A DNA stretch of 64,000 bases from Alphaproteobacteria bacterium (lineage in GTDB: Bacteria; Pseudomonadota; Alphaproteobacteria; Micavibrionales; UBA2020), in assembly GCA_041287865.1 (NCBI GenBank), contig JBGGMV010000066.1:7966-71965 (forward strand), written 5' to 3'. Positions 32,106 through 64,000 of the stretch are shown piece after piece. Below the pieces are notes generated by a model that saw only the letters and a program-made list of their open reading frames with translations, made no database searches and was not told the origin of the DNA. Position 1 is the first letter of the stretch. The number at the start of each line of letters is the position of its first letter. Made by a program: the position numbers and the translations under genes.

Positions 32106-32174
32106 TATTGCGCCAAAACTGGCAAAGCCCCTGAAACTACTGGTTTTTTAATCTTTTTCCGCTATATTGAAGAT

Positions 32175-46177: not shown

Positions 46178-47392
46178 ATGCCTAAGTTCAGTTACAGGGC
46201 TATCAATCCGAAGGGCCGGCCGGTGCGGGGCGTTGTGAACGCCGCCAACGAGACGGATTTGTTCAATCGCTTGCAAGAAACGGGCATGAACCTGCTCGAC
46301 TGCAAGGAGATGAGCGAAAAATCCAACAAGCTGGCGGCCCTGACCGCCAAGAAGGTCAAGGTCCGCGACCTGATCCAGATGTTCGTCCACCTCGAACAGC
46401 TGCAGAAGGCCGGGGTTCCCTTGCTGGATTCAATTACCGACGTGCGCGACACCGCTGAATCGACCCGCCTGCGCGACATCATGAGCGATATTTACGCCGA
46501 AGTGACGGCGGGCTCCTCGTTCTCCAACGCGCTGGCCAAGCACCCCGGCACCTTCCCCGCCATCTTCATCTCGCTCATCAACGCGGGCGAGGAAACGGGT
46601 AACCTCACCAACTCGTTCGTGCAGGTCATCAAGCACCTGAAGTGGACGGACGCGATGGACACCAAGGTGAAAAAGGCGACGCGCTATCCCAAGGTTCTCT
46701 GCGTGGTCGTCGTCGGCGTTATTTACGTGATGCTGGGCCACGTCGTGCCCGAGGTCGTCGGATTCCTGCGCAACATCGGGCAGGAACTGCCGCCGATCAC
46801 GCAGGCGCTGATCTCCACCTCCGACTTCGTGGTGGGCTATTTCGGCTATATCATCGGCGTGATCATCCTCATCATGGTCATCCTGCGCGTCGGGCGCCTG
46901 ATGTCGGAGGATTTCAAGTACCGCACCGACTACATCGCGCTGCGCATGCCGGTGATGGGCAACCTGATCCGCAAAATCTCGCTCTCGCGCTTCTGCCAGA
47001 CCTTCGGCGTCCTCTTCACCTCGGGTCTCGAGATCCTGAAATGCCTCGAGGCCGCGAAGCAGACCTCGGGCAACCTCGTCATCACCGAGGCGCTGGAATC
47101 GGTCAAGACGCAGGTGCAGGAAGGCTCGGGCCTTTCCCATGCGCTCAACTCCTCGGGCGAATTCCCGTCGCTGGTCGTGCGCATGGTCAAGATCGGCGAG
47201 GAATCGGGTAACCTGACGGGCGTTCTGGAACAGGTGTCGGAATTCTACGACAAGGACGTCAACGAAGCCGTCGACGCGATGATCCAGATGATCGAACCCG
47301 CGCTGACCGTCGTGCTCGGCGGCATGCTGCTGTGGATCGCGGCCGCCGTCTTCGGCCCCGTTTACGACAGCTTCGGCAAGATGGGCGGATAA
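46178..47392 (+). CDS. pilC: Type IV pilus platform protein, PilC/GspF family
   Basis: 404 aa with two GspF repeats and 3 TM helices, including the (ESGNL) motif. Confidence 0.9.
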   Translation: MPKFSYRAINPKGRPVRGVVNAANETDLFNRLQETGMNLLDCKEMSEKSNKLAALTAKKVKVRDLIQMFVHLEQLQKAGVPLLDSITDVRDTAESTRLRDIMSDIYAEVTAGSSFSNALAKHPGTFPAIFISLINAGEETGNLTNSFVQVIKHLKWTDAMDTKVKKATRYPKVLCVVVVGVIYVMLGHVVPEVVGFLRNIGQELPPITQALISTSDFVVGYFGYIIGVIILIMVILRVGRLMSEDFKYRTDYIALRMPVMGNLIRKISLSRFCQTFGVLFTSGLEILKCLEAAKQTSGNLVITEALESVKTQVQEGSGLSHALNSSGEFPSLVVRMVKIGEESGNLTGVLEQVSEFYDKDVNEAVDAMIQMIEPALTVVLGGMLLWIAAAVFGPVYDSFGKMGG

Positions 47393-49033: not shown

Positions 49034-49683
49034 AACTGATCGGCCTTAAACGCGCCATCATCCTTGCCGTGCTGTTCGCCATCAACCTGGCGATCGCGGC
49101 GGTCTATTTCCTGCAGGTCATGCCGATGGCCGAGGAATCGGCGCGCAACCTCGACAACATCAACAGCCAGATCTCCGCGACCAGCCAGAAAATATCCTCG
49201 ATCAAGGCGGATCTTGAAACCTTCAAGACCACGCTGCCGCAGTTCCGCGAGCTGGAGGCCAAGGGCTTCACGCTGCCGCAGGACCGTTTCCGCATGAGCC
49301 GCGACCTCGACGCCGTGCGCCTGAAGGCCGAGCTCGGTGGCTTCAAGTTCACCATCAACGACATCCGGAAGGTCGACAACCCCGACATCGACCCGACGAC
49401 GATGCAGCTGATCTACCGCCGCATCAAGGTCGACAACGTCGAATCGCTGCTCGACACCAACTTCTTCACCTTCATCGACGCGATGCAGCGCGACTTCCCG
49501 ACGCATACCCGCTTCCAGTCGATGCAGATGCGGCGCAAGGACCCGCTGAACGGCGCCGCGCTGGCCAAGATCCAGAAAAAGGAACGCGTCGACCTGATCA
49601 CGGCCGAAGCGCAGTTCGACTGGCTGACGATCATTCCGAAGGCAACCGAAGAATCGGGCACCGGCCCGACGGGAGGCCTGTAA
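49030..49683 (+). CDS. PilO-like pilus assembly protein
   Basis: 217 aa with an N-terminal TM helix (AIILAVLFAINLAIAAVYFL), a coiled coil and a C-terminal domain. It has a 4-nt overlap with the upstream gene. Confidence 0.6.
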   Translation: MKLIGLKRAIILAVLFAINLAIAAVYFLQVMPMAEESARNLDNINSQISATSQKISSIKADLETFKTTLPQFRELEAKGFTLPQDRFRMSRDLDAVRLKAELGGFKFTINDIRKVDNPDIDPTTMQLIYRRIKVDNVESLLDTNFFTFIDAMQRDFPTHTRFQSMQMRRKDPLNGAALAKIQKKERVDLITAEAQFDWLTIIPKATEESGTGPTGGL

Positions 49684-49684
49684 G

Positions 49685-50443
49685 ATGAAGGCCGCCGCCC
49701 CGAAGCCGACCGCCACGAAATACGGCTGGATCATCGCCGCCGCCTGCCTTGCCGTGCTGGGCCTGTCGCCCGTGGCGCGCGCGCAGCTGGGCGATGTCGG
49801 CATTGCTTCCGGCGCCGCCGGCATGATGAACAACAACCCGATTGCGCAGGGCGCGCAGCAGACGCAGGCTGCCGCGGCGCTTGCCGCCGGCCAGCCCGCT
49901 GCCGCAGTTGCGCCCGGCACGCCGCCGGCTGCGGCTGCTCCGGCAGGAGCGCCTGCTGCCGCAGCGCCCGCAGGGGCACCCGTCGCCGCAGCAGCGCCGG
50001 CAACAGCCGCTGCCGCGATGTCCGTGCCGGCGCCCGAGGCACCGGCGGTCACCGACCTGAAATCGCCTTTCGTGCAGTCGCTTTTCTTCTCGCCGCAGGA
50101 CATCATTGCGATCAAGAAAGCTTCCGAAACGCGCGGACCGATCGACACCACAGGCGGTGTGCAGACGCAGACGCCCGTGATCCCGATGAACCGCTACATT
50201 GCCGTTTCCGGCATCAGCTATAAATCGCCCGACAACTGGGTGGTCTGGATCAACGGCCGCAAGGTCGTCAAGGGCGGCGAAGGCGTGCTGAAGGAACTGG
50301 TCGAGATCAAGCCGCAGAAAGATTACGTCGACCTGCTCTGGTTCGATATCGGCCTCAACGGCACGATCAAGATCAAGATGCGCCCCAACCAGACCTATTA
50401 TATAGTGCCGGGCCTGCTCCTGCCGGGGGTTGCACACGAATGA
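49685..50443 (+). CDS. PilP-like / unknown periplasmic pilus component with Ala/Pro-rich linker
   Basis: 252 aa with a signal/TM segment (WIIAAACLAVLGLSPVARA), a long A/P-rich region and a small C-terminal beta-rich domain. Confidence 0.55.
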   Translation: MKAAAPKPTATKYGWIIAAACLAVLGLSPVARAQLGDVGIASGAAGMMNNNPIAQGAQQTQAAAALAAGQPAAAVAPGTPPAAAAPAGAPAAAAPAGAPVAAAAPATAAAAMSVPAPEAPAVTDLKSPFVQSLFFSPQDIIAIKKASETRGPIDTTGGVQTQTPVIPMNRYIAVSGISYKSPDNWVVWINGRKVVKGGEGVLKELVEIKPQKDYVDLLWFDIGLNGTIKIKMRPNQTYYIVPGLLLPGVAHE

Positions 50444-51210
50444 CGGCACTCGCCCAGACCATGCCCGATCCCGCCATTCCGGCGGTGAGCATCAAGCAGG
50501 TATCCGCCGGCTACAAGCACGGCATGGTGATCGAGGACATCGATTTCGAGGTCAGGCAGGGCGAAACCTTCGGCCTGATCGGGCTGAACGGCGTCGGCAA
50601 GACGACGCTCATCAAGATCATGCTGGGCCTGATGGAGGCCAAGAAGGGTTCGGTCGAGATTTTCGGCGGCAAGTCGCTGGACGCCGCCACCAAGAAAAAA
50701 ATCGCCTACCTGCCCGAAAAATTCGAGCCGCCGCCGTTCCTGTCGGCGCTCGAATTCGTCAAATTCTCGCTCGACCTCTACAAGCAGCCTTTCTCGGAAG
50801 AAGCGGTGATGAAAGCCGCTGACCGTGTGTCGCTGACGCGCGCCGCGGTCAAGCGCCGCGTGTCGACCTATTCGAAAGGCATGCGCCAGAAGACGGGGCT
50901 GATCGGCACCTGGCTGACCGGCTGCCCGCTGCTGATACTGGACGAGCCGATGAGCGGCCTCGATCCTCTCGCCCGCGTGCTGGTGAAGGACGAGATCGCC
51001 GCCTGCCGCAAGGCCGGCATGACCGTTTTTTTATCGTCGCACATCCTCGCCGACATGGACGAAATTTGCGACCGCATCGCCGTCATCCACGACGGCCGCC
51101 TGCGCTTCACCGGCACGCCTGCCGAGCTGAAGGCGCAGACGAAGCAGGAATACCTCGAGCGGGCATTCCTGAAAACAATCGAAGGTTCAACAAGGGTCTA
51201 TGAATCATGA
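50440..51210 (+). CDS. ABC transporter ATP-binding protein embedded in the pilus operon
   Basis: Has Walker A (GLNGVGKTT), the signature YSKGMRQ and Walker B (LLILDEPMSGLD). It has 4-nt overlaps with both neighbouring genes. Confidence 0.88.
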   Translation: MTALAQTMPDPAIPAVSIKQVSAGYKHGMVIEDIDFEVRQGETFGLIGLNGVGKTTLIKIMLGLMEAKKGSVEIFGGKSLDAATKKKIAYLPEKFEPPPFLSALEFVKFSLDLYKQPFSEEAVMKAADRVSLTRAAVKRRVSTYSKGMRQKTGLIGTWLTGCPLLILDEPMSGLDPLARVLVKDEIAACRKAGMTVFLSSHILADMDEICDRIAVIHDGRLRFTGTPAELKAQTKQEYLERAFLKTIEGSTRVYES

Positions 51211-52955
51211 CAAATAACGATGACAACCTCGATGAAGGTTTCGAAGACCTCGACGCCGCGGCGGACGCCCCCCCCGGTGACGAACCCGTTCCCGGTGAAG
51301 AAGGCGGCGATGCGCTGGCCGCGCCCACGCGCAGGATGACCTCCGGCGGGGGCTCCAGGAAAAACCTCTTTATCCTGCTGGGCCTTGTCGGCGTTCTCGC
51401 CGTTGGCGGCGGCGGCGCTTATATGTTCCTGATGGGAGGCGATGATCTTGCGCCCGCAACGCCTGTCGCGGCCGTGCCGGCCGCCGCGCCTGCAACCGAA
51501 GCGACTTTCGCAGCGCCCACCGACCCCAATGCCACGCCGCTCGTCGATCCGCTGGCGACTGCGCCCGCGCCCGGCAACCTGTCTGACACGCGTCCCGATG
51601 CCATGGCCACGGCACCGGGCGCCATTCCCGGCATGGACGCCGCCCCCGCGACCGATCCCGCCGCTGTCGCGGTTGTTGATCCCGCTGCTCCCGCTGCTCC
51701 CGCAGCTCCCGCAGCGACTGATCCTGCCGCTGCTGTCGCCGTCGTTGATTCTGCTACCGTTGCGGTTGTCGATCCTGCCGCCACGCCGCCGGTTGATACC
51801 GCGACCGCGACGACGACCGTCACGACAACAGTCGAAACCGCCGCGAACCCCGCCGTCGACCCTGCCACTGTGCCGCCGGCTGACGCCGCTGCGCCGCCGG
51901 TAGATACGGCAGCTGCGCCGCCCGCCGATCTCGGCGCGCCGCCGGCAGAAGAAAATATAGCTGTGCCGCTCAACGCGGTGCCGCCGGCTGACGTTGCCGC
52001 CGTGCCCGCCGACCCGGCGACAACCGCGCCGGTCACGCCCGCGCCCGGCGAACAGCAGCCCGACCTGCCCATGCCCGAACAGGCGCAGGTGCCCGCGACG
52101 ACGACCACCACCACGGTCACCACCACCGTCACGCAGCCCACCGGCACGCCTGTCACGCCCGCCACGGGCGGCCCCAGCGCGGCCGAACTGGCCATCACGC
52201 AGAACGCCGCAATCCTCGACCAGCTGGCGCAGCCCGGCACGTCAACGCGGCCCTTCGATCCCGCCGCGCCCACGCCCAGCCAGACCAATGCGATCAAGGA
52301 AGTGGACAAGCTGCTGCAGCAGGAAGCCATCATCCGTCCGCTGCCGCCCTCGTGGCTGCAGGTCAGCAAGAACCGCGACGCGGGCGACATGGACAGCCGC
52401 CTCACCGCCGCGCGCTCCGCGCTGGCGCAGAACCGCAACTCCGCCGCCCTGCAGCTCTTCACCGAGCTGAGCAGCAAATACCCGAAGGATACCCGCATCC
52501 TGATGGGCCGCGCCGTGGCGCTGCAGAAACTGGGACAAAACGAGGAAGCGCTGGGCGCCTACGAAGCCGTGCTGATCGCCAATCCCAAGAACCTGGAAGC
52601 GCTGACCAACATGCTGGGCCTGCTGAAAGGCAAGGATCCGCAGCTGGCCGTCTCCAAGCTGACCGAGCTGCATGAAACCTATCCCTACCAGGCCGATATC
52701 ACGGCGCAGCTGGGCGTCGCCCACGGGCAGGCCGGCGAATACGAACAGGCGCTCCGCTATCTCGACATGGCCGAGGCGATGGACCCCGGCAGCGCGTACA
52801 TCCTCTATAACAAGGCCGTGCTGCACGACAAAATGGGCCATTCCGCGCAGGCGGGCGACCTGTACCGCCAGCTGATCCGCATGGCGGCCGACGGCTCGCT
52901 CGACGAAAACCTGCCGCTCGAGCACATCAAGAGACGCCTGACAGTCCTGCGCTAG
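51207..52955 (+). CDS. TPR-repeat pilus-associated protein with long Ala/Pro/Thr/Val low-complexity region
   Basis: 582 aa. It has an acidic N-terminus, one TM helix (LFILLGLVGVLAVGGGGAYMFLM), a low-complexity stretch of about 270 aa (VVDPAA repeats and TTTVTTTV twice) and C-terminal TPRs (ALQLF.., EEALGAYEAVL.., YEQALRYLDMA..). Confidence 0.8.
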   Translation: MTNNDDNLDEGFEDLDAAADAPPGDEPVPGEEGGDALAAPTRRMTSGGGSRKNLFILLGLVGVLAVGGGGAYMFLMGGDDLAPATPVAAVPAAAPATEATFAAPTDPNATPLVDPLATAPAPGNLSDTRPDAMATAPGAIPGMDAAPATDPAAVAVVDPAAPAAPAAPAATDPAAAVAVVDSATVAVVDPAATPPVDTATATTTVTTTVETAANPAVDPATVPPADAAAPPVDTAAAPPADLGAPPAEENIAVPLNAVPPADVAAVPADPATTAPVTPAPGEQQPDLPMPEQAQVPATTTTTTVTTTVTQPTGTPVTPATGGPSAAELAITQNAAILDQLAQPGTSTRPFDPAAPTPSQTNAIKEVDKLLQQEAIIRPLPPSWLQVSKNRDAGDMDSRLTAARSALAQNRNSAALQLFTELSSKYPKDTRILMGRAVALQKLGQNEEALGAYEAVLIANPKNLEALTNMLGLLKGKDPQLAVSKLTELHETYPYQADITAQLGVAHGQAGEYEQALRYLDMAEAMDPGSAYILYNKAVLHDKMGHSAQAGDLYRQLIRMAADGSLDENLPLEHIKRRLTVLR

Positions 52956-52959
52956 GCCC

Positions 52960-53772
52960 ATGGAGAGCGGGGCCGAAGGACTGCCGGCGATTTTCTCCAT
53001 CATCAGCGTCATCCTGCTGGGCCTCTGCCTTGGCAGTTTCGCCAGCGCGATGTCGTGGCGCCTGCCACGCGGCATTTCATTCGTCACCGAAAGATCCCAA
53101 TGCCCCTCGTGCCGCGCCACGCTCGGCGTCGTTGACCTTGTGCCGGTTTTTTCGTGGCTTTTCCTGGGGGGCAAATGCCGCCGCTGCAAGGCGCCGATCG
53201 GCTGGCGCTATCCGCTGATCGAGCTGTCGACGCTGCTGCTCTGCCTTCTCTTCCTCTGGCGCTTTCATTTTTCGCCGGCGTTGTTTCCGCTGCTGCTGCT
53301 GGCGCCGGTGATCGTCAGCATCATCGACATCGACCTGCACCACAAAATCATTCCCGACGGGCTGAACGCCTCGGTCGCACTTTTCGGCTTCATGGCGCTG
53401 GCGCTGGCCGCCGTCGATTCGGGCAACCCGCCGGCCTATCTCAGCGACAAGGGGCTCATAGCTTTGGCGGGCGCGCTGCTCTATGGGCTGGGTTCGCTTG
53501 CTTTACGATACGGGATGATGCTGGCGCTGAAGAAAGATCCGCTCGGTCTGGGCGATGTTAAGTTCTTTGCGGCGGCGGGCTTCTGGTTCGGCCTCAGCCC
53601 CGATGCGCTGGCCGCTTTTATGCTGATTTCGGGCCTGATGGCGGTCTTTTTGGCGCTTCTGTGGCGCAAGGTGAAAAAGGAACTGGAGTTCCCCTTCGGC
53701 CCCGCGCTGGTGCTGGCGTTCCTGCTTGTCCTGCTGGTACACCCGCCTGAATTCCTGACAGTATATTTTTAA
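52960..53772 (+). CDS. pilD: Prepilin peptidase / N-methyltransferase (A24 family)
   Basis: Has CPSC...CRRC zinc-type cysteines and catalytic Asp contexts (IIDIDLHHKIIPD, GLGDVKF). Confidence 0.9.
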   Translation: MESGAEGLPAIFSIISVILLGLCLGSFASAMSWRLPRGISFVTERSQCPSCRATLGVVDLVPVFSWLFLGGKCRRCKAPIGWRYPLIELSTLLLCLLFLWRFHFSPALFPLLLLAPVIVSIIDIDLHHKIIPDGLNASVALFGFMALALAAVDSGNPPAYLSDKGLIALAGALLYGLGSLALRYGMMLALKKDPLGLGDVKFFAAAGFWFGLSPDALAAFMLISGLMAVFLALLWRKVKKELEFPFGPALVLAFLLVLLVHPPEFLTVYF

Positions 53773-53820
53773 ATATGTAAACGCAGATTTACCGTTTTTT
53801 CAATCAAAATAGGCTATCTT

Positions 53821-53837
53821 TATAAGGTACTGCAGGG
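53821..53837 (+). promoter_or_regulatory. Cluster cis-motif copy (TATAAGGTACTGCAGGG)
   Basis: This is the first of two copies in the pilD-pilT intergenic region, 61 bp upstream of the second. Confidence 0.5.
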
Positions 53838-53881
53838 AGTACAGGCGTTCATTTAAAAACCGTTACGCCCCTGACAGAGAT

Positions 53882-53899
53882 TATAAGGTGTGTGCAGGG
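53882..53899 (+). promoter_or_regulatory. Cluster cis-motif copy (TATAAGGTGTGTGCAGGG), upstream of pilT
   Basis: It lies 44 nt before the pilT GTG. With its flanks, GATTATAAGGTGTGTGCAGGGCTC closely parallels the copy upstream of the secretin gene. Confidence 0.55.
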
Positions 53900-53942
53900 C
53901 TCTGATCAAAGCGCTCTGGGGTAATCGAGGGGGAATAAAGCC

Positions 53943-55175
53943 GTGGAAATCACCGAGCTGTTAAAATTCACGCTGGAGAACAAGGCGTCAGACTTGCACC
54001 TGAGCTCCAACAACCAGCCGATCGTGCGCATCGACGGCGACCTGCAGCGCATCAAGACCGATATGCTGACCAGCGACATCATCCGCACCATGCTCTTCGC
54101 GGTCATGACCGAAGACCAGCGCGCGATTTACGAACGCGAGCTCGAGCACGACTTCGCCATCTCGCTCGGCACCGACGCGCGTTTCCGTGTCAACGCTTTC
54201 ACCAACCGCGGCGGCGCTGCCGCCGTCTTCCGGGTGATTCCGACCAAGATTCCGACGATGGAGCAGCTCGATCTTCCGCCCGTCATGCGCCGCCTGGCCG
54301 AACTTGAAAAGGGCCTCGTGCTCGTCACCGGCCACACCGGCTCGGGTAAATCGACGACGCTGGCGTCCATGATCAACCACATCAACGCGACATACCCCTA
54401 TCACATCCTGACGGTCGAAGACCCGGTGGAATTCTTCCACCCCTCGAAAACCTCGCTCGTCAACCACCGCGAGGTCGGCAACGACACAAGATCATTCGCC
54501 CGCGCGCTCAAATCCGCGCTCCGCGAAGACCCCGACGTCATTCTGGTGGGGGAGATGCGCGACCATGAAACGATCTCTCTCGCGCTGACCGCCGCCGAAA
54601 CGGGCCACTTGGTCTTCGGCACCCTGCACTCGAACACCGCTTCCAAAACAATCGACCGTATCATCGACGTGTTCCCGGCCGCGGAAAAAGAGATGGTGCG
54701 CGCCATGTTGTCCTCCTCGATCCAGGGCGTTATCGCGCAGGCGCTCCTTAGAAAAGAAGGCGGCGGCCGCGTCGCCGCTCACGAGATCATGGTGGGCACG
54801 AACGCCGTGCGAAACCTGATCCGCGAAAACCAGCTGGCCCAGTTATACTCGATGATCCAGACCGGCTCCCGCTACGGGATGCAGACGATGGAAGACTCGG
54901 TGAACGACCTTGTCGTGACGGGCGCGATTTCCGAACAAACCGCGCATGACGCGACCAAGGACGCGACCGAAGACATGGCGGAAGCCAACGAAGGCATCCA
55001 GGGCGGCAACGCGCCCGCGAAGGGCAAGCCCATGGTCAAGGCCCCGCCGCCCAAGGCGGTCGCGCCGCCGAAACCGGTTCCCGGCAAGCCCGCAGCAGCG
55101 CCGCCGAAACCGGCCGAAGCGCCGCCGGCTGAAGGCGAAGAAGGCAAAGCTGAAGGCGGAGGATATTCCTTTTGA
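53943..55175 (+). CDS. pilT: Twitching-motility retraction ATPase PilT with Pro/Ala/Lys-rich C-terminal extension
   Basis: GTG start. It reads MEITELLKFTLENKASDLHL, has Walker A (GHTGSGKSTT) and the AVRNLIRE motif, and carries a tail of about 65 aa (KAPPPKAVAPPKPVPGKPAAAPPKPAEAPP). Confidence 0.9.
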   Translation: MEITELLKFTLENKASDLHLSSNNQPIVRIDGDLQRIKTDMLTSDIIRTMLFAVMTEDQRAIYERELEHDFAISLGTDARFRVNAFTNRGGAAAVFRVIPTKIPTMEQLDLPPVMRRLAELEKGLVLVTGHTGSGKSTTLASMINHINATYPYHILTVEDPVEFFHPSKTSLVNHREVGNDTRSFARALKSALREDPDVILVGEMRDHETISLALTAAETGHLVFGTLHSNTASKTIDRIIDVFPAAEKEMVRAMLSSSIQGVIAQALLRKEGGGRVAAHEIMVGTNAVRNLIRENQLAQLYSMIQTGSRYGMQTMEDSVNDLVVTGAISEQTAHDATKDATEDMAEANEGIQGGNAPAKGKPMVKAPPPKAVAPPKPVPGKPAAAPPKPAEAPPAEGEEGKAEGGGYSF

Positions 55176-56296
55176 GCGGAGTCGCGATCTACGCATACCT
55201 GAACGAGATGATAAAGCAGTCGGCCACCGACCTTTATATTACCTGTGGCGTGCCGCCGACATTGCGCGTCGACAACGAATTGCACCCGCTGGGCGACCAG
55301 CAATTGCAGGAAGACGACGTGCAGGCGATGCTGAACGAGGTCCTGACCTCGCGCCAGCGCCGCGAATTCGACGCCAACATGGAACTGAACCTCGCCTTCG
55401 ACATGGGCAAGGAAGGCCGTTTCCGCGTGAACGTCATGCGCCAGCGCCAGCATACCGGGATGGTCATCCGCCGCATCACCAGCGAAATTCCGTCGTTTGA
55501 AAAACTGCGCCTGCCCAAGATCATGGAAAAACTCGCGCTTGAAAAACGCGGGCTCATCATGCTGACCGGCGTGACCTCGTCGGGTAAATCGACCTCTCTC
55601 GCCGCGATGATCGACTACCGCAACCAGACGGTGGGCGGCCACATCATCACCATCGAAGACCCGATCGAGTATTATCACGAGCATAAAAAAGGCGTGATCA
55701 CCCAGCGCGAGATCGGTATCGACACGACGTCCTATGCGATTGCGCTGAAAAACGCGCTGCGCCAGAAGCCCGACGTTATTCTGGTGGGCGAGGTGAGGGA
55801 TCCCGAGGTGATGGAGCAGACCATCACGGCCGCCGAAACCGGCCACTTGTGCCTTGCGACCATTCACACCAACAACGCGCCGCAGGCGATCGAGCGCATC
55901 ATCAACTTCTTCCCCGAAGACCGGCAGCAGCAGATCCGCATCGCGCTGTCGATGAACCTGAAGGCCATCGTCTCGCAGCGCCTGATCCGCACGATCAAGG
56001 GCGACATGGTTGTGGCGCTGGAAATCCTGCTCAACGAAGCGCTCATCAAGGAGCTGATTCTGAAGGGCGAGACGACAAAGATTAAGGAAATCATGATCTC
56101 GAGCGGACAGGCCTCCGGCATGATCACCTTCGACCAGTCGATCCTCAAATTATACGTTGACGGGCTCATTTCCGAGCAGACCGCCGTCGCCGAAGCCGAC
56201 ATTCAGGCGGATATGAAAATGAAGATCAAGAATATCAACCTGAGCGACAAGTCCCGCGGTTCGTCCAGCGTTGACACCTCCAAACTCTCCCTGTAA
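55172..56296 (+). CDS. pilU: PilT-family ATPase, PilU-like
   Basis: TTG start overlapping the pilT stop. It has Walker A (GVTSSGKSTS) and lacks the AIRNLIRE motif, as PilU proteins do. Confidence 0.85.
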   Translation: MSGVAIYAYLNEMIKQSATDLYITCGVPPTLRVDNELHPLGDQQLQEDDVQAMLNEVLTSRQRREFDANMELNLAFDMGKEGRFRVNVMRQRQHTGMVIRRITSEIPSFEKLRLPKIMEKLALEKRGLIMLTGVTSSGKSTSLAAMIDYRNQTVGGHIITIEDPIEYYHEHKKGVITQREIGIDTTSYAIALKNALRQKPDVILVGEVRDPEVMEQTITAAETGHLCLATIHTNNAPQAIERIINFFPEDRQQQIRIALSMNLKAIVSQRLIRTIKGDMVVALEILLNEALIKELILKGETTKIKEIMISSGQASGMITFDQSILKLYVDGLISEQTAVAEADIQADMKMKIKNINLSDKSRGSSSVDTSKLSL

Positions 56297-56308
56297 CAAT
56301 TGTTTGAT

Positions 56309-56328
56309 TATAAAGGTATAAAGCAGGG
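56309..56328 (+). promoter_or_regulatory. Cluster cis-motif copy (TATAAAGGTATAAAGCAGGG), upstream of the secretin gene
   Basis: GATTATAAAGGTATAAAGCAGGGCTC. The 3' part forms the hairpin cagggc/gccctg (56324-56341). It lies 56 nt before ATG 56384. Confidence 0.5.
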
Positions 56329-56383
56329 CTCGCGCGCCCTGTTTAGACATAACTTTTTTGGGAAAGTCGGGGCCTTCAAGATC

Positions 56384-58219
56384 ATGTTCGCATCAGGTCG
56401 CTTCGGCCGCTTCGGCGGTTTCATTGTCACGGTTCTTGCGGTGGTCTTCCTCACCAGCTGCCAGGCAGCCAAGAACCAGCTGCAGTTCGACCGCAGCGCC
56501 GAGCTGGATCGCCAGGATTACCGCGACGCGCTGGCGCCGAACACGCTGCCGCCGGATTCCGAAGTGCCCACGCCTGAATTCCAGGCCGTTCTCTCCACGC
56601 CCGAAGAACTGCGCCTGCCGTCGCCGCTGGTCAGCGTTCAAGTCAACCAGACCGTCGGCCTGCGCGACCTGATCTGGCAGCTGGCCGAACAGGCCGATAT
56701 CGATGTCGAACTGGATCCGCAAATCCACGGCACGATCAGCTTCACCGCCAAGGAACGCCCGTTCGACGAAGTCATCCAGCGCATCTGCGACATGGCCGGC
56801 CTGCGCTACAAGTTTGACAACGCCGTCCTGCGCGTCGAGCTCGACCGCCCCTATACCCACAACTACAGCGTCGATTTCATCAACGTCGCGCGCCGCGGCA
56901 GCATGGGCATCAACACCAGCATCAGCCTGGCGTCCACCGAAGGCGGCGCCGCAGGCAGCGGCAGCTCGTCCTCGAACGTCAGCAACGAGATCAACGGCGA
57001 CATGTGGAAAGAGCTGAACGACGGCATGGAACAGCTGCTGTCGTCTTCCGACACATATATATCGCTGGCTACGCTGACCGATCCGGTGACGGCGCCTGCC
57101 GTGCCTGCGCCGCCGCCGCCGCCCGCGAACCCCGACCAGCCCCCGCCGCCCCCGCCGCTGCCGGGCGATCCCGCCGTCGCGCCGCTGCCGGCCGCCGTCG
57201 CGCCTGTGCTCAACATCACCACGCCGCCCGGCGAACCGATGGTGCCGAACCCGCCCGCGACCTTCTCGATCAGCCGCCAGTCCGGCATCGTCAGCGTCTT
57301 CGCGAGCGAGCGCCAGCAGCGCCTTGTGCAGCGTTTCATGAACGATTTCCGCCGCCGCGTCGGCACACAGGTGCTGATCGAGGCGAAAGTGCTGCAGGTC
57401 GAGCTTAACGACGAATATGCCGCCGGCATCAACTGGTCGGACGTCGACCTGACCGGCCTGCTGAAAGTGACGCAGGGATACACCTTCCCCGGCATCACGG
57501 GCCTGAACGGCAGCAACTTCGGCCTGACCTTTGACCACGGCAACTTCAGCGCGGCGCTGCAGGCGATGAACCGCTTCGGCAGCATCCGCATCCTGTCCAG
57601 CCCGCGCGTGACGGTGATGAACAACCAGCCCGCCGTCGTCAACGTGACGCAGAGCTTCGTCTACTTCGACTTCGACGTCGAGGCCGGCACGACCGACACC
57701 AACGGCGTGACCACGCCGCCCACCATCGACGGCGAAGTGCGCTCGGTGCCCGAAGGCGTGCTGCTCAACGTCGTGCCGACCGCGAACCCCGACACCGGCG
57801 AAATCGTCCTTGTCGTGCGTCCGACGGTTTCCAAGATCACGAACACGATTCCCGACCCGACGGTCGGCCTGACGCTGGCGCTGAACGGCGGCGTGCCGCC
57901 CGGCGTCGAAGTGCCCACCAACGAAATCCCGCGCGTCGCGTTGCAGGAAATCGATTCTGTCATGCGTCTCCAGTCCGGCCAGATGATGGCCCTGGGCGGG
58001 TTGATGGAAGACGAAAACACCATCCAGCAGGACGGCGTTCCGATTGCGTCGGACATGCCGATCCTGGGCGCGCTCTTCCGCACCCATAAAGACACGCTGC
58101 GCAAGAGCGAGCTGGTCATCTTCCTGAAGGCCTCCATCATCGCCGGCTCGAACGTCGACGAGATGGAGAAGAAGACTTACAAGGTCTTCTCGCTGGACCG
58201 CCGTCCGGCGCGCCTCTAA
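56384..58219 (+). CDS. Secretin (PilQ/GspD family), lipoprotein-type signal
   Basis: Starts at MFASGRFG, with lipobox FLTSC. It has a poly-Pro linker and a C-terminal secretin domain (ILSSPRVTVMNNQPAVVNV, VPIASDMPILGALFR). Confidence 0.88.
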   Translation: MFASGRFGRFGGFIVTVLAVVFLTSCQAAKNQLQFDRSAELDRQDYRDALAPNTLPPDSEVPTPEFQAVLSTPEELRLPSPLVSVQVNQTVGLRDLIWQLAEQADIDVELDPQIHGTISFTAKERPFDEVIQRICDMAGLRYKFDNAVLRVELDRPYTHNYSVDFINVARRGSMGINTSISLASTEGGAAGSGSSSSNVSNEINGDMWKELNDGMEQLLSSSDTYISLATLTDPVTAPAVPAPPPPPANPDQPPPPPPLPGDPAVAPLPAAVAPVLNITTPPGEPMVPNPPATFSISRQSGIVSVFASERQQRLVQRFMNDFRRRVGTQVLIEAKVLQVELNDEYAAGINWSDVDLTGLLKVTQGYTFPGITGLNGSNFGLTFDHGNFSAALQAMNRFGSIRILSSPRVTVMNNQPAVVNVTQSFVYFDFDVEAGTTDTNGVTTPPTIDGEVRSVPEGVLLNVVPTANPDTGEIVLVVRPTVSKITNTIPDPTVGLTLALNGGVPPGVEVPTNEIPRVALQEIDSVMRLQSGQMMALGGLMEDENTIQQDGVPIASDMPILGALFRTHKDTLRKSELVIFLKASIIAGSNVDEMEKKTYKVFSLDRRPARL

Positions 58220-58249
58220 CAGGGGCCGAAGGGCGAGGGGTCTTCCGTC

Positions 58250-59071
58250 ATGATCTCAGGTCCGCTGATCAGGTTCGTGCTGACCGCCGCTTTCCGCGAC
58301 AAGCTGCTGCTGACCCTGCTCGTCATGATCGGGACGGGCACGGGCCTTGCGATGTTCCTGGGCGACGCGGCGATGACCGAAAAGGAAAGCTTCGCGCTGG
58401 TCTTCGGCGCTTCGGGCTTGCGTTTCCTCTCCGTCATCGGCGTGGTACTGTTCTGCTGCTTCTACGTGCGCCGCGCCTTCGAGACCAAGGAAGTCGAATT
58501 CCTGCTCTCCCGCCCGCTGTCCCGCATGTCCTTCCTGTTTAACCATGCCCTGGCCTTCATGCTGCTGGCCGCGCTGGTCACGCTGGCGGTGGTGGCGGCT
58601 GTCTTCTGCCTTGGCAAGCCTGACATGGGCGGCCTTGCTGCCTGGGGCTTCAGCATCGGCATCGAAAACATGATCATGGCGGTCACCGCGCTCTTTTTCT
58701 CGATGGTGCTGTCCTCGGCCGCCGGCTCGGCGCTCGCCACGCTCGGCGTCTATGTGCTGGCGCGACTGATGGGCACGCTGCTGGGCATCGCGGCGGTGAC
58801 GCCGGAAAAAGTGGTTTTCGCCGTGCTCAACAACGTCATGAACCTCGTCTCCGTCGTGGTGCCGCGCCTTGACCTGATGGGCCAGACGTCGTGGCTCGTC
58901 TATGGCGTCGAGGGCTCCGGCGGCATCGACTTCCTCGAGCGCGCGGGCACCTACGCGCACCAGCTGATGGGAACGCTGGGTATCATGGGCTTCATGGCGG
59001 CGCAGGGGGTGGTGTTTATCGGGCTGATGCTCTTCGCCGCCGCCTTCGACTTCTTGCGGCGGCAGTTCTGA
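58250..59071 (+). CDS. Multi-pass membrane protein, possible ABC-2-type permease partner of the 50440 ATPase
   Basis: 273 aa with about 6 TM helices. The permease role is inferred from topology and context only. Confidence 0.6.
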   Translation: MISGPLIRFVLTAAFRDKLLLTLLVMIGTGTGLAMFLGDAAMTEKESFALVFGASGLRFLSVIGVVLFCCFYVRRAFETKEVEFLLSRPLSRMSFLFNHALAFMLLAALVTLAVVAAVFCLGKPDMGGLAAWGFSIGIENMIMAVTALFFSMVLSSAAGSALATLGVYVLARLMGTLLGIAAVTPEKVVFAVLNNVMNLVSVVVPRLDLMGQTSWLVYGVEGSGGIDFLERAGTYAHQLMGTLGIMGFMAAQGVVFIGLMLFAAAFDFLRRQF

Positions 59072-59853
59072 TGGCGCCGGCACAGCTCAAAAAAGCTGTG
59101 AACGCGGGGCTGCTGGCTTTCCTCGGCCTTAACTTCCTTCTCTGGTACGCCAGCTCGGATATCTACGCGCGCTGGGAAGGCGTGCCGCCCCCGCCGTCGG
59201 AGAAAAGCGCGCGGCTGATGACGCTGGGCGACGCGCAGTTTTCCTACCGCTTCGGCGCGATCACGCTGCAGAACCTCGGCGACGGCGGCGGCCGCGTGAC
59301 AAGCTTGCGCGATTACGACTACGGGCGCCTTGGCAAATGGTTCTGGCTGCTCAACAGCCTCGATCCGGCCTCGAACCACGTGCCGATGGTGGCGGCCTAT
59401 TACTTCGGCGGCAGCGGCACGCCCAAGGACATCATCGTGGTCGTCGATTACCTTGCGGCGATCGGCGTCAACCCGGTCGGCAACAAATGGCGCTGGCTGG
59501 CGCATGCGATCTTCCTCGCACGGCACCACCTGAACGACCTCAAGCGCGCGCTCGACCTTGCCTACAGGCTGTCGAAGATGGAGCCCATCGGCGACACGCT
59601 GCCGGAATGGGCGCGGCAGATGCCGGCCTTCGTGCTGTCGGAGCAGGGCGACAAGCAGGCCGCGCGCAAGATCATCGAAAACCTCCTGCTAAGCAGCCGG
59701 CGCTTCCACCCCAACGAAGTCAATTTCATGAAGCACTGGCTGACCGTCGAGCTGGGCGTCGATCCGCAGGAAGTCGACATGATACTCAAGATGCGCGGCC
59801 CGGATCAGCCCTTGCCGGACGGCCCGCGGATCGCACCACCGGCGCCCGAGTGA
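59071..59853 (+). CDS. Hypothetical membrane-anchored protein
   Basis: Starts at MAPAQLKKAVNAGLLAFLGLNFLLWY; the start ATG overlaps the upstream TGA. It has one TM helix and a soluble helical domain. I recognise no family. Confidence 0.55.
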   Translation: MAPAQLKKAVNAGLLAFLGLNFLLWYASSDIYARWEGVPPPPSEKSARLMTLGDAQFSYRFGAITLQNLGDGGGRVTSLRDYDYGRLGKWFWLLNSLDPASNHVPMVAAYYFGGSGTPKDIIVVVDYLAAIGVNPVGNKWRWLAHAIFLARHHLNDLKRALDLAYRLSKMEPIGDTLPEWARQMPAFVLSEQGDKQAARKIIENLLLSSRRFHPNEVNFMKHWLTVELGVDPQEVDMILKMRGPDQPLPDGPRIAPPAPE

Positions 59854-59881
59854 GCGCGTCGCGCCTAAAAGGATACAAGCC

Positions 59882-60979
59882 GTGATCGGACTGGACTATG
59901 CCACCACTTTCAGCCTGATAGAATGGCTGGCCGTCACCGGCCTGGTGCAGTGCGTCTTTATCCTTGTCTATACGGCCTTTCGCGCGCGCAACTGGCGTCA
60001 GGCGGCGATCGCCTTCGCCTATTTCCTCTGCCTTGCGGCGGCCTTCGGCCTGCAGTTCTCGTTGCGTCTCACCTATATCGAGCAGCCGCTGCGCGTTGCC
60101 CTGTGGTTCTTCTGGGCGATGGGCGCGCCGCTGTGCTTTCTGCTGGTGCACCAGGTCGTCAAGCTGACCGAGGTGCCGGAGCGGCGGCACCTGCTGGTTC
60201 TCTTTATCATGCCGCTGGTTTTCGCGGCGGCCTTCGCGCTGCAGCGCACGCGCCATCTGTGCGAAGGCGGCGACTGGCTCTGCCCGCGCTTTATTGACGT
60301 GCTGTCCTGGCTGGGCGGCATGGCGGGGGCGCTTTGCATGCTGGCGCTCTGGGCGCAGAAGGACATGTTCGGCAAGCTCTGGCGGCAGAGGGGCGCCCGC
60401 GAGCGCTACTGGCTGGTCATGACGCTGGTGCTGGCGAACGTCATGGGCGTCATCGTCAGCCTGCTGAACGCAACAGGATATCTTGACCGCACCGACCATG
60501 ACGCGCTGCATGTGATCCTCGGGATCGCCTTCGCCTATCTTGCAACGACAACATTGTTCCGTGTCTATCCGCTGCCCGTGGCGATGAGCGCGGCGTCGCG
60601 CGCGCGGGCGCTTTTGCTCACCGAGGAAGAAAAGCGAATCGCCGAAAAAGTCCAGAAGCTCATGGAGCTGGACAAGCTGTACCACGAGCATACTTTCAGC
60701 CGCGCCGACCTGGCGCGCGAGGTGGGGGCGTCCGAAAATACGCTGTCGCGCGTCATCAACATCGCCTTTGGCCGCAGTTTCCCCCGTTTGCTCAACGAAT
60801 TCAGGGTGGAAGACGCAAAACGGATGCTGGCCGATCCCGCGATCCCGATCCATGTGCTTGCCTCCGAAGTGGGCTTTAACTCGCTGGCGTCGTTCAATCG
60901 TGTCTTTCGCGCGCTCACCGGCGAGACGCCATCCTCCTACAGGGCGGCGCATACCGCTGCGACAGAAAAAAACCCGTAA
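59882..60979 (+). CDS. AraC-family transcriptional regulator with N-terminal polytopic membrane domain
   Basis: GTG start. The first ~240 aa contain 6-7 hydrophobic helices. The C-terminus has the AraC HTH (FSRADLAREVGASENTLSRVIN...VGFNSLASFNRVFRALTGETPSSYR). Confidence 0.85.
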   Translation: MIGLDYATTFSLIEWLAVTGLVQCVFILVYTAFRARNWRQAAIAFAYFLCLAAAFGLQFSLRLTYIEQPLRVALWFFWAMGAPLCFLLVHQVVKLTEVPERRHLLVLFIMPLVFAAAFALQRTRHLCEGGDWLCPRFIDVLSWLGGMAGALCMLALWAQKDMFGKLWRQRGARERYWLVMTLVLANVMGVIVSLLNATGYLDRTDHDALHVILGIAFAYLATTTLFRVYPLPVAMSAASRARALLLTEEEKRIAEKVQKLMELDKLYHEHTFSRADLAREVGASENTLSRVINIAFGRSFPRLLNEFRVEDAKRMLADPAIPIHVLASEVGFNSLASFNRVFRALTGETPSSYRAAHTAATEKNP

Positions 60980-61432
60980 TTGGCATTTCTTTGCGCCGGG
61001 ACGCAGTAAAATAATCATCAAAACGTAAAATTCTGTTTTAATGATTCTCACTTTGTCCCGCAGGACACAGCGTGACGTTTTGGTAACTCTGTTGGCGGTG
61101 TCGAGAGCAGGACGCGCAGGATCATGCAAAAGACGCTGAATCGCTCTTCATCTTGACGATGTAAAGAGTGTACGTGCGTACGGGAAAATCCCACATAAAT
61201 CATCAGTATATGTCAACGCAGACTGCTTATTTTGTCATGGTGAGCAATGAAACGACTGAAATTAAACATTCGTTTAACTTTTTTGTTGAATTATAGGGAT
61301 TAGGCCACCAAACTTGTGCATGACCTTCCTGCCTATTGTCGGCAGACGAGCTTTCAGAACACATCTAATGGGGCAGACTCAAGGGACGGTTTTAATTAAC
61401 GAACTAAATAAGACCAACATAGGGGAAAATTC

Positions 61433-62272
61433 ATGAAAAGAGTTAATGCACAAAAGGGCTTCACGCTCGTCGAATTGGCGATCGTGATGACCATCATCGG
61501 CCTGCTGATCGGCGGGATTCTGAAAGGGCAGGAACTGATGGAAAACGCCCGCGTGACCTCGACCGTCGCGCAGGTGAAATCCTATTCGGCTGCCGTCACC
61601 AGCTTCAAGGACATGTACCAGTCCTATCCCGGTGACATGCCCGGCGCGGGCACCCGCCTTGTCGGCTGCCCCGGCGCGTCCGGTGCTGCTTGCGACCCTG
61701 TTACCGGCGCCGGTAACGCGGGTAACAACATCGTCGGCCTGACCACCTGGAGCACGGCTTGGGGCGCGCCTGGCGTGACCGCAACCACCGGCACCACGGC
61801 TGCCACGGCTGTCGACTCGGAAAAATACCTCTTCTGGGCGCACCTGCTGCTTGCCAACCTGATCGGCGGCGTGACGGATGAAGGCCTGAACAACGCGATC
61901 GCGTTCCAGTTCGGCCGCACCCATCCTGAAGCCAAGATCTCGGGCGGCTTTACGGCAGGCTATGCTACGGGCGTGATTGGCCCGGGCTCGCTGCAGCCTG
62001 CAGGCACCGGCATCTCGGGCACCATCCTCGCGCAGGTGGTTGCACCCGATGCAGCCCTGCCGGTCACGGCAAGCTCGAACCCTCTTGCTCCTCTGCGCGC
62101 CGCGCAGATCGACCGCAAGATGGATGACGGCCGCCCCGGCACCGGATATGTCCAGGCCTTCGGCCTCGGCACGTCCTGCTTCACGACCGCCACGGCCGGC
62201 ACGACGCAGTACACCTACAACGAGACCATCGCTACGAAAGACTGCGGTCTCCTGTTCCGTATTGAAGGCTAA
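61433..62272 (+). CDS. Type IVa pilin, large (279 aa), tandem copy 1
   Basis: The sequence MKRVNAQKG|FTLVELAIVMTIIGLLIGG has a short leader, Gly-1, Phe+1 and Glu+5. A C-terminal Cys pair (SCFTT...KDCG) forms a D-region-like loop. Confidence 0.92.
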   Translation: MKRVNAQKGFTLVELAIVMTIIGLLIGGILKGQELMENARVTSTVAQVKSYSAAVTSFKDMYQSYPGDMPGAGTRLVGCPGASGAACDPVTGAGNAGNNIVGLTTWSTAWGAPGVTATTGTTAATAVDSEKYLFWAHLLLANLIGGVTDEGLNNAIAFQFGRTHPEAKISGGFTAGYATGVIGPGSLQPAGTGISGTILAQVVAPDAALPVTASSNPLAPLRAAQIDRKMDDGRPGTGYVQAFGLGTSCFTTATAGTTQYTYNETIATKDCGLLFRIEG

Positions 62273-62280
62273 TCAAACGA

Positions 62281-62315
62281 AAAAAACCCGGGGGGTTTCC
62301 CCCGGGTTTTTTTTG
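62281..62315 (+). terminator. Rho-independent terminator after pilin copy 1
   Basis: aaaaaacccgggggg ttt cccccgggtttttttt. Confidence 0.85.
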
Positions 62316-62392
62316 ACTCAAGCACTATATGAACTCGTCTCTACCAAGTGAACTTCCTCAAAAATCATGAAAAATCATGGGAGAAAAAATTC

Positions 62393-63232
62393 ATGAAAAG
62401 ACTAAACACACAAAAGGGCTTCACCCTCGTCGAGTTGGCGATCGTGATGACCATCATCGGTCTGCTGATCGGCGGTATTCTGAAGGGGCAGGAACTGATG
62501 GAAAACGCCCGCGTGACCTCGACCGTCGCGCAGGTGAAATCATATTCGGCTGCCGTCACCAGCTTCAAGGACATGTACCAGTCCTATCCCGGTGACATGC
62601 CCGGCGCAGGCACCCGTCTTGTGGGCTGCCCCGGCGCTTCCGGTGCCGCTTGCGACCCTGTTACCGGCGCTGGTAACGCGGGTAACAACATCGTCGGCCT
62701 GACCACCTGGAGCACGGCCTGGGGCGCGCCCGGCGTGACCGCAACCACCGGCACCACGGCCGCCACGGCTGTCGACTCGGAAAAATATCTTTTCTGGGCC
62801 AACCTGCTGCTCGCTAACCTGATCGGCGGTATCACGGATGAAGGCCTGAACAACGCGATCGCGTTCCAGTTCGGCCGCACCCATCCTGAAGCCAAGATCT
62901 CGGGCGGCTTTATCGCGGGCTATGCTACGGGCGTGATCGGCCCGGGCTCGCTGCAGCCTGCAGGCACCGGCATCTCGGGCACCGTTCTCGCGCAAGTGGT
63001 TGCACCTGCAGCCGCCCTGCCGGTCACGGCAAGCTCGAACCCTCTTGCTCCCCTGCGCGCCGCGCAGATCGACCGCAAGATGGATGACGGCCGCCCCGGC
63101 ACCGGCTATGTCCAGGCCTTCGGCCTCGGCACGTCCTGCTTCACGACCGCCACAGCCGGCACGACGCAGTACACCTACAACGAGACCATTGCTACCAAAG
63201 ACTGCGGTCTCCTGTTCCGTATTGAGGGCTAA
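62393..63232 (+). CDS. Type IVa pilin, tandem copy 2
   Basis: Starts at MKRLNTQKGFTLVELAIVM and is 279 aa. It is nearly identical to copy 1. The upstream Met of track ORF 62348 lies in non-homologous leader sequence. Confidence 0.92.
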   Translation: MKRLNTQKGFTLVELAIVMTIIGLLIGGILKGQELMENARVTSTVAQVKSYSAAVTSFKDMYQSYPGDMPGAGTRLVGCPGASGAACDPVTGAGNAGNNIVGLTTWSTAWGAPGVTATTGTTAATAVDSEKYLFWANLLLANLIGGITDEGLNNAIAFQFGRTHPEAKISGGFIAGYATGVIGPGSLQPAGTGISGTVLAQVVAPAAALPVTASSNPLAPLRAAQIDRKMDDGRPGTGYVQAFGLGTSCFTTATAGTTQYTYNETIATKDCGLLFRIEG

Positions 63233-63250
63233 TCACCTTCTTCTCTAGCA

Positions 63251-63281
63251 AAAAGCCCGGGGGCGACCCCGGGTTTTTTTG
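63251..63281 (+). terminator. Rho-independent terminator after pilin copy 2
   Basis: aaaaagcccggggg cga ccccgggttttttt. Confidence 0.85.
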
Positions 63282-63506
63282 TTTGCGTTCCTTGATTTCC
63301 CCTCTGTCGGGGGCACTTTGATAAACAGGCGTTTAAAAATATGAGAGGTTCCGATGGAACTTTTTTACCGGAACAATGTTAGACGGCTAGTACCAAAATC
63401 GTATTGCCCGCGATGGCTAACAAAAAGTTTACGCCGCGTTGACGGCGCAACCACCGCCCCGCTGGCAGGGGACGACATCAAGTAGCGCGTAAGGGGAGTT
63501 CAGAAC

Positions 63507-64000
63507 ATGAATAAAACGAACACACAAAAAGGCTTCACACTCGTCGAATTGGCGATCGTGATGACCATCATCGGCCTGCTGATCGGCGGGATTCTGAAAG
63601 GGCAGGAACTGATGGAAAACGCCCGCGTGACCTCGACCGTCGCGCAGGTTAAATCCTATTCGGCTGCCGTCACCAGTTTCAAGGACATGTACCAGTCTTA
63701 TCCGGGTGACATGCCCGGCGCAGGCACCCGTCTTGTGGGCTGCCCCGGCGCGTCCGGCGCGTCCTGCAACCCTGTTACCGGCGCCGGTAACGCGGGTAAC
63801 AACATCATCGGCCTGACAACCTGGAGCGCGGCCTGGGGCGCGCCCGGCGTGACCGCGACCACCGGCACCACGGCGGCCACGGCTGTCGACTCGGAAAAAT
63901 ACCTCTTCTGGTCGCACCTGCTGCTTGCCAACCTGATCGGCGGCGTGACGGATGAAGGCCTGAACAACGCGATCGCGTTCCAGTTCGGCCGCACGCATCC
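63507..64000 (+). CDS. Type IVa pilin, tandem copy 3 (partial, runs off the right window edge)
   Basis: Not in the ORF track because there is no stop. ATG 63507 gives MNKTNTQKGFTLVELAIVMTIIGLLIGGILKGQELMENARV..., collinear with copies 1 and 2. An AAGGGGAG RBS lies upstream. Confidence 0.9.
   Translation, partial: MNKTNTQKGFTLVELAIVMTIIGLLIGGILKGQELMENARVTSTVAQVKSYSAAVTSFKDMYQSYPGDMPGAGTRLVGCPGASGASCNPVTGAGNAGNNIIGLTTWSAAWGAPGVTATTGTTAATAVDSEKYLFWSHLLLANLIGGVTDEGLNNAIAFQFGRTH

Follow-up and report, generated by a model that had tools for sequence, protein, structure and literature searches.

Type IV pili have been implicated in the contact that bacterial predators make with their prey. Among the described systems closest to the one reported here, Legionella pneumophila encodes the pilins PilA1 and PilA2, which are ~72% identical and of which only PilA2 is displayed at the surface (PMC13170364), and further precedents for multi-copy pilin genes are the pilA1-3/pilE1-E2 genes of Streptococcus sanguinis (PMC11121087) and the pilA homologues of Stigmatella aurantiaca (PMC3776727). 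The size of the subunit also varies; the mature proteins of 1,955 type IVa (T4a) major pilins average 141 ± 25 amino acids (aa), with a range of 42–297, and the 208-aa PilA of Myxococcus xanthus is an example of the 'large' T4a class (PMC11046646). Here we analyse three tandem genes for a 279-aa prepilin at the end of a 64,000-nucleotide (nt) stretch of DNA, hereafter the window, from an alphaproteobacterium of the order Micavibrionales (contig JBGGMV010000066.1, positions 7,966–71,965). The genes are likely to be separately transcribed paralogues encoding the major pilin of a retractile type IV pilus in a Micavibrio-like predator, kept for dosage and separate regulation.

The array resembles the Legionella, S. 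sanguinis and Stigmatella examples in that two to four full-length, non-silent major-pilin genes lie adjacent or clustered and would serve one pilus. It differs from them in the strong terminator and unrelated leader that belong to each copy and in its signs of concerted evolution; compared with the Legionella pair, its copies are far more alike (94–97% identical), as are the pairs of four sister species (99–100%). With Neisseria pilE/pilS the array shares multiple pilin-coding sequences and gene conversion among them, but conversion here would homogenise rather than diversify, and there are no promoterless, 5'-truncated cassettes. Silent cassettes of the pilE/pilS type were rejected, every copy being full length with a ribosome-binding site (RBS), an ATG and a leader peptide.

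An earlier note on this DNA, made from the sequence, had described at least three tandem, near-identical 279-aa genes separated by spacers of 120 and 274 bp, and the open reading frames (ORFs) agree. The array and its control elements are as follows.

61145..61318, plus strand: conserved non-coding block of 174 nt, ~115–288 nt 5' of copy 1 only; candidate promoter/operator
61421–61426, plus strand: RBS of copy 1, AGGGGA
61433..62272, plus strand: pilin copy 1, 279 aa, leader MKRVNAQKG and then FTLVE...; MEZ0261268.1, matching P0001 exactly
62280..62313, plus strand: intrinsic terminator 1, 3' of copy 1, with 15-bp arms, an A-run and a T-run, bidirectional in shape (inverted repeat I4)
62314..62392, plus strand: leader of copy 2, ~80 nt, after terminator 1
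62379–62384, plus strand: RBS of copy 2, GGGAGA
62393..63232, plus strand: pilin copy 2, 279 aa, leader MKRLNTQKG; MEZ0261269.1
63250..63280, plus strand: intrinsic terminator 2, 3' of copy 2, found by a terminator scan and related to terminator 1 (repeat family D9)
63281..63506, plus strand: leader of copy 3, ~225 nt, after terminator 2
63491–63498, plus strand: RBS of copy 3, AAGGGGAG
63507..64000, plus strand: pilin copy 3, first 164 codons, cut at the window end, leader MNKTNTQKG; MEZ0261270.1, which is P0003

Every copy has a Shine-Dalgarno-like run 6–8 nt 5' of its ATG. Collinearity of the copies had been placed from about 10 nt before the ATG to the stop codon; the repeat unit begins 7 nt 5' of the ATG (repeat family D1, from 61426), and the homology continues past the stop through the terminator. 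The non-terminator parts of the spacers (120 bp between copies 1 and 2, 274 bp between copies 2 and 3) are dissimilar to one another and to the DNA upstream of copy 1, except for a few bases directly 5' of each ATG and the opening 30 bases of the coding sequence, which upholds the description of the leaders as unrelated. The terminators are strong, as claimed, with fold energies of −29.5 kcal/mol for copy 1 (z −6.1) and −23.9 kcal/mol for copy 2 (z −4.1), but they are not distinct: both consist of an A-run, a CCCGGGG(G) stem and a T-run, and they are 74% identical over 31 nt.

The earlier note had also allowed that the array continues past the window, which proved not to be the case. The three proteins carry consecutive accessions (MEZ0261268.1, MEZ0261269.1 and MEZ0261270.1) on one 145,694-bp contig of the 'Alphaproteobacteria bacterium' metagenome-assembled genome (MAG), and no fourth family member on that contig appeared among the best 120 matches. 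A second assembly, L080 (ENA ERZ23203616 NODE_109; 90,791 bp), is 99.92% identical to the window at 52393–64000 and reaches past its end; the three 279-codon genes recur there with these spacers. Copy 3 is 279 aa at full length, its 3' part and terminator (about −31 kcal/mol) being read from L080 (11115–11954 and just downstream), so that all three copies have a leader and terminator of their own, as first proposed. The array therefore consists of exactly three pilin genes. Both assemblies are metagenomic, and the coverage of L080 is 5.5x; their agreement on genes and spacers speaks against the assembly artefact that the note had named as a refutation.

Of 837 nt, 45 differ between copies 1 and 2 (94.6% identity), and ~36.5 of these differences are synonymous, in keeping with the many silent differences seen before. 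The few amino-acid changes between them number exactly seven (V4L, A6T, H137N, V147I, T174I, I198V and D206A), not about eight, and two of these fall within the cleaved leader peptide. Copy 3 is 92–94% identical in nucleotides to copies 1 and 2 over the 494 nt inside the window; the remainder was taken from L080, whose copy 3 equals the window over the common 494 nt and translates to P0003. The mature products differ between copies at 5–15 of 270 residues. By the Nei–Gojobori method, the ratio of non-synonymous to synonymous divergence (dN/dS) is 0.074 at a dS of 0.187 for copies 1 and 2, 0.138 at 0.223 for copies 1 and 3, and 0.103 at 0.300 for copies 2 and 3, with a deficit of non-synonymous changes in each pair (binomial P < 4e-12). 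Because dN/dS is only 0.07–0.14 at a dS of 0.19–0.30, purifying selection acts on all three copies, as had been surmised. In the window, copy 2 has N137 at a position where the pilin family has a nearly invariant His.

Among GTDB species representatives, a scan recovered 79 related loci, nearly all labelled Micavibrio or unclassified Alphaproteobacteria, with one family gene in 73, two in six and three in none. Ten of the contigs stop <400 nt from a pilin gene, and short-read assemblies may therefore undercount copies. Metagenome contigs contributed three further pairs, of which one is partial, but no triple; in that scan no relative exceeded 65% identity and no array went beyond two genes. 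In four loci (L001, L007, L009 and L010), the tandem copies have 99–100% protein identity within a genome and 54–76% between genomes. These pairs show near-zero DNA mismatches over ~750–800 nt of coding sequence (zero in three pairs), yet each has 10 or more mismatches among the 30 nt that open the coding sequence, as well as wholly unrelated upstream leaders. All 12 differences in L001 are confined to the two ends, the first 24 nt and the last 46 nt, a distribution with a chance probability of ~1e-13. A simple recent duplication is unlikely in these relatives because 100–230 nt of unrelated spacer and diverged leader-peptide codons accompany the identical sequence, and the pattern points to conversion of the mature-coding part and terminator, which would explain identical coding DNA beside unrelated leaders. 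Two other pairs are not homogenised (L020, 52% identity; L053, 69%).

The window and L080 differ at nine positions over 11.6 kb, and eight of these lie within copy 2 (62393–63232 against L080 10001–10840), where L080 has the base of copy 1 at gene positions 150, 216, 225, 231, 246, 255, 279 and 409. Four of the alleles that copy 2 has in the window are shared with no other copy nor with the outgroup, which would make copy 1 the donor and copy 2 the recipient in L080, the replaced tract being 130–233 nt long. As a conversion tract this patch is suggestive only. Across the three copies, site patterns show mild clustering (p = 0.03). Gene conversion is likely a second force keeping the copies alike, and for this reason dS between copies is no clock for the age of the duplication. 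When orthologous spacers were sought between species for dating, only the terminator and the coding-sequence ends aligned.

Upstream of copy 1, the conserved block at 61145..61318 can be aligned in 10 species although their pilins are only ~55% identical. It contains an invariant 18-mer, TTTAACTTTTTTGTTGAA, at 61273–61290, which occurs once per locus in nine loci, 143–192 nt 5' of the first pilin ATG and never before later copies. The block also has inverted repeats, TTGACAA...TTGTCA ~72 nt apart and TTAAC-N6-GTTGA. It is probably promoter/operator DNA, and the adjacent AraC-family protein would be a plausible binder; the gene for this protein lies immediately 5' of the pilin gene or genes in nearly all relatives. 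Two other explanations of the block were rejected: an RNA element, for which RNAalifold gave no support from covariation (−5.96 kcal/mol, one compensatory pair), and a 28-codon ORF, whose conservation is not three-periodic and includes a nearly invariant run of >20 nt. Rfam, searched at an expectation value (E) ≤ 1 over 60900–64000, gave only sub-threshold matches on the terminator and none in the block. A TGGCA-N5-TTGC-like string at 60981 was discarded as a promoter on account of its wrong spacing and its position 450 nt upstream. Given the strong terminators in front of them, copies 2 and 3 would be transcribed independently.

A class III signal peptide marks the gene products as prepilins, with a 9-aa leader that ends in Gly−1 and is followed by Phe+1 and Glu+5 (MKRVNAQKG|FTLVELAIVMTIIGLLIGG in copy 1; leader length and Phe+1 are the same in all copies). 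The N-terminal methylation motif is the sole family assignment above cut-off (PF07963, N_methyl, 31.2 bits against 21.2; TIGR02532, 26.3 against 16.3), and no Pfam family covers the 220-aa head. At 270 aa, the mature protein has roughly double the mean T4a length, as the earlier note had estimated, and falls inside the published range in the 'large pilin' tail. Its composition, 40% Gly+Ala+Thr, and its four Cys likewise agree with the first description. In an alignment of 114 homologues, the first 45 residues are almost invariant, Cys 79, 87 and 271 are invariant and Cys 249 is conserved in ≥90%; the C-terminal pair C249/C271 is positioned like a D-region. Mature positions 18–23 read G-G-I-L-K-G throughout the family, which places Lys at 22, where Pro22 is absent.

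AlphaFold2, run on the 114-homologue alignment, gave a model with a predicted local distance difference test score of 92.4 and a predicted template modelling (TM) score of 0.85, in which a helix spans residues 12–62 and the head consists of four short strands and helices. The top five Foldseek matches in the PDB are type IV pilins, among them Clostridioides difficile PilA1 and Vibrio cholerae TcpA, at E 0.07–0.4 and TM 0.28–0.57, below significance. A profile search against PDB sequences matched pilin N-termini only (Neisseria PilE best, E = 2e-4), and MshA (9lab) aligned with only the N-terminal 38 residues (E = 0.036); the match in PHROGs was likewise limited to the N-terminal helix. Searched alone against 1.84 billion representatives, the head (residues 60–279) matched 767 of the 50%-identity clusters at E ≤ 1e-3, of which 235 reached E ≤ 1e-10, and by these sequence matches it constitutes a real but modest family without a Pfam model.

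The pilin array forms the 3' end of a pilus locus that is encoded on the same strand. The order is ATPase, PilC/GspF, three ORFs, ABC ATPase, TPR protein, prepilin peptidase, two PilT proteins, secretin, ABC-2-like membrane protein, 260-aa protein, AraC regulator and pilins, with the following coordinates.

44044–46002, plus strand: assembly ATPase with an MshE-type N-terminal domain that binds cyclic di-GMP (NF053729, 64.5 bits against 38; PF05157 MshEN, 55.3 against 23.1)
46178–47392, plus strand: PilC/GspF platform protein
47396–50443, plus strand: three ORFs of 545, 217 and 252 aa at the site expected for PilM/N/O-type alignment proteins
50440–51210, plus strand: ABC-transporter ATPase, embedded in the pilus cluster
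52960..53772, plus strand: PilD-like prepilin peptidase (PF06750; PF01478, peptidase A24)
53943–55175 and 55172–56296, plus strand: two PilT/PilU-family retraction ATPases (TIGR01420, 474 and 419 bits against a cut-off of 319)
56300..58219, plus strand: secretin (PF00263; best model MshL TIGR02519, 204 bits, below 250)
58250–59071, plus strand: 273-aa ABC-2-like membrane protein, no or weak Pfam matches, order kept in >50 species
59071–59853, plus strand: 260-aa protein, no or weak Pfam matches, order kept in >50 species
59882..60979, plus strand: AraC-family regulator (HTH_18, HTH_AraC at residues 277–355), directly 5' of the pilin array

The three ORFs at 47396–50443 have no significant Pfam or NCBIfam match, the 545-aa protein has no PDB sequence match, and no PilMNOP were recognised among the locus proteins. 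The N-terminal half of the AraC regulator (~230 aa) is hydrophobic and apparently multi-pass, and the protein may be a membrane-anchored one-component regulator. Elsewhere in the window, a two-piece (permuted) alphaproteobacterial transfer-messenger RNA at 32136–32527, with the tag peptide ANDNMPARAELRLVA, confirms the alphaproteobacterial origin of the stretch.

The 'type IVa' label given in the earlier note fits in part. Like T4a PilA/PilE, the protein has a short Gly-ended leader, Phe+1, Glu+5, a helix of ~50 residues with a globular head and a D-region-like Cys pair, and the locus contains a PilD-type peptidase and PilT. Against the label stand the extreme size, the combination of Lys22 with Gly 18, 19 and 23 in place of Pro22, the head without a Pfam family, the MshE-/MshL-like ATPase and secretin and the unrecognised PilMNOP. 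The ATPase and secretin score highest as MshE- and MshL-like, though under the curated cut-offs, and they also stay below those of the PilB and PilQ models (TIGR02538, 496 bits against 676; TIGR02515, 88 bits against 284). Compared with an MSHA-type pilus, only the MshE N-domain is above cut-off, the MshL secretin and MshA pilin matches being below it or partial.

A major pilin gene followed by minor pilin genes is the usual layout of such loci. Downstream of the array, at 12123–16983 in L080, lie three larger genes for Cys-rich proteins of 450, 429 and 693 aa, all of which open with class III signal peptides (...LQG|FTLIE, ...SGG|FSLIE and ...RAG|YTIIE). Convergent housekeeping genes come next. 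These three proteins are probably minor or tip pilins or adhesins. Homologues of the trio lie 3' of the pilin in L001–L003, L005, L006, L010 and L016; the trio is inverted in L007 and L009, and it lies elsewhere in Micavibrio aeruginosavorus ARL-13 (GMV_742–744).

The order PilT-PilT-secretin-membrane protein-260-aa protein-AraC-pilin is kept in >50 of the 79 loci, and genomes labelled M. aeruginosavorus (L053, L054 and L065) carry the same protein family. In M. aeruginosavorus ARL-13, the prepilin gene GMV_1530 adjoins AraC, membrane-protein and secretin genes (PMC3189940). GMV_1530 is highly expressed, above all during attachment, with an index of 34.5 for the attack phase and 196.5 for the attachment phase, most genes having single-digit values (PMC3189940, supplement 4). 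By synteny and annotation, not sequence, GMV_1530 would be the positional orthologue of the pilin array. The ARL-13 locus is like the present one in its secretin, membrane protein, hypothetical protein, AraC and prepilin, but has one 247-aa copy, and its three large prepilin genes (GMV_742–744) are not at the locus. A different arrangement was observed in the MAG B3_Bin_Bin_115_1 (CALDHH01), which has at least six dispersed family members on separate contigs (L014, L021, L029, L043, L046 and L049), only L014 having the canonical pilus-locus context; some lineages have thus expanded the family by dispersal, not in tandem.

In the reading that we favour, three paralogues supplying the major subunit of one retractile pilus, the locus prepilin peptidase would cleave the prepilins after Gly9, as is expected from family knowledge, and the MshE-like ATPase and PilC platform would polymerise the pilin via its 50-residue N-terminal helix. 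The fibre would leave the cell through the secretin, and the two PilT ATPases would pull it back. With so few differences in the mature part, the products should be interchangeable and would co-assemble in one fibre, which may serve prey attachment. Three transcription units, only the first of which has the clade-conserved block, would provide more pilin and separate regulatory inputs for essentially one protein. Purifying selection keeps the copies alike, probably together with occasional conversion limited to the mature-coding part and terminator.

Several points weigh against this reading. All three copies are known here from sequence alone, 73 of the 79 related loci have a single gene, so that the pilus does not require multiplicity, and the head fold has no significant structural match. 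On the plus strand, a sigma-70 scan gave no site in any of the leaders, and sigma-54 (GG-N10-GC) and relaxed sigma-70 scans gave no convincing one. With respect to conversion, the copies are 5–8% diverged in nucleotides, so that it can be at most occasional, and the copy-2 patch of L080 could be an assembly chimera, given the 5.5x coverage and flanking common stretches of 47–56 nt. Further, one old duplication and repeated duplications are inseparable because the spacers cannot be aligned between species.

The alternative that survives best, though we consider it improbable, is that the copies are functionally distinct, forming alternative pili or a deliberate heteropolymer, with surface changes that tune adhesion, prey range or the evasion of phages and antibodies. 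Copy 3 differs from copies 1 and 2 by 12–13 mature residues, the leaders differ, Legionella PilA1/PilA2 (PMC13170364) and S. sanguinis PilA1-3 (PMC11121087) are precedents with unequal roles, and diverged tandem pairs exist in the relatives L020 (52%) and L053 (69%). However, the mature products in the window are 95–98% identical and their changes mostly conservative (V/I, T/I, A/S, F/Y), dN/dS is far under 1 and diversifying selection is not seen. The mature proteins are identical in the pairs of three relatives and nearly so in a fourth; such pairs are unable to supply functional diversity, which speaks for quantity or regulation as the point of the arrangement.

A neutral, fairly recent tandem duplication or an assembly artefact, in either case without functional meaning, is very unlikely. 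One copy does suffice in most relatives, and both assemblies are metagenomic, one of them at low coverage (5.5x). Nevertheless, the observed dN/dS at this level of synonymous divergence is incompatible with neutral decay, and the start codon, RBS, leader peptide, open frame and terminator are intact in all copies. Two assemblies share the structure, and the 5–8% nucleotide differences together with unique spacers exclude a collapsed or expanded repeat; unrelated spacers would also be unexpected from a simple recent tandem duplication. There is just as little to recommend type II secretion pseudopilins of the GspG kind, which the NCBI product name ('type II secretion system protein') and a weak TIGR01710 GspG match to the N-terminal 65 residues would favour. 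That match scores 27.7 bits where the cut-off is 88.85, two PilT retraction ATPases are encoded in the locus, and the 64-kb window has no prepilin-motif ORF besides the three pilin genes and no GspH–K-type minor pseudopilin. In addition, the scanned locus proteins gave no match to GspC, L or M, and 270 aa is twice the size of GspG.

Beyond the reading of three near-equivalent major-pilin genes, a bolder proposal can be put forward tentatively, and we hold it to be rather doubtful: the Micavibrio-type pilus may be a distinct subclass of type IV filament, in which major-pilin genes are recurrently kept as multi-copy arrays that ongoing gene conversion homogenises, so that the same subunit could be made from different attack- and attachment-phase promoters. 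The features that would set such a subclass apart are the 270-aa pilin, a new head fold, the absence of Pro22, the MshE/MshL-like motor and secretin and the two PilT proteins, as well as the embedded ABC-transporter module, the putatively membrane-anchored AraC protein and three very large Cys-rich minor pilins.

Both multi-copy pilin genes and large pilins have been documented before, and the locus does not overturn current understanding. What is particular here is the size of the pilin, its unclassified head, the triple array in which each copy has its own terminator and leader, and the clade-wide signature of concerted evolution. We found no characterisation in the literature of the pilus of the epibiotic Micavibrio group, for which the locus supplies a complete list of parts, together with a confident model of its unusually large pilin. 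Identical coding regions beside unrelated leaders across the clade offer a clean, small example of bacterial concerted evolution, and the array is a natural test of why cells keep near-identical major-pilin genes under different control regions.

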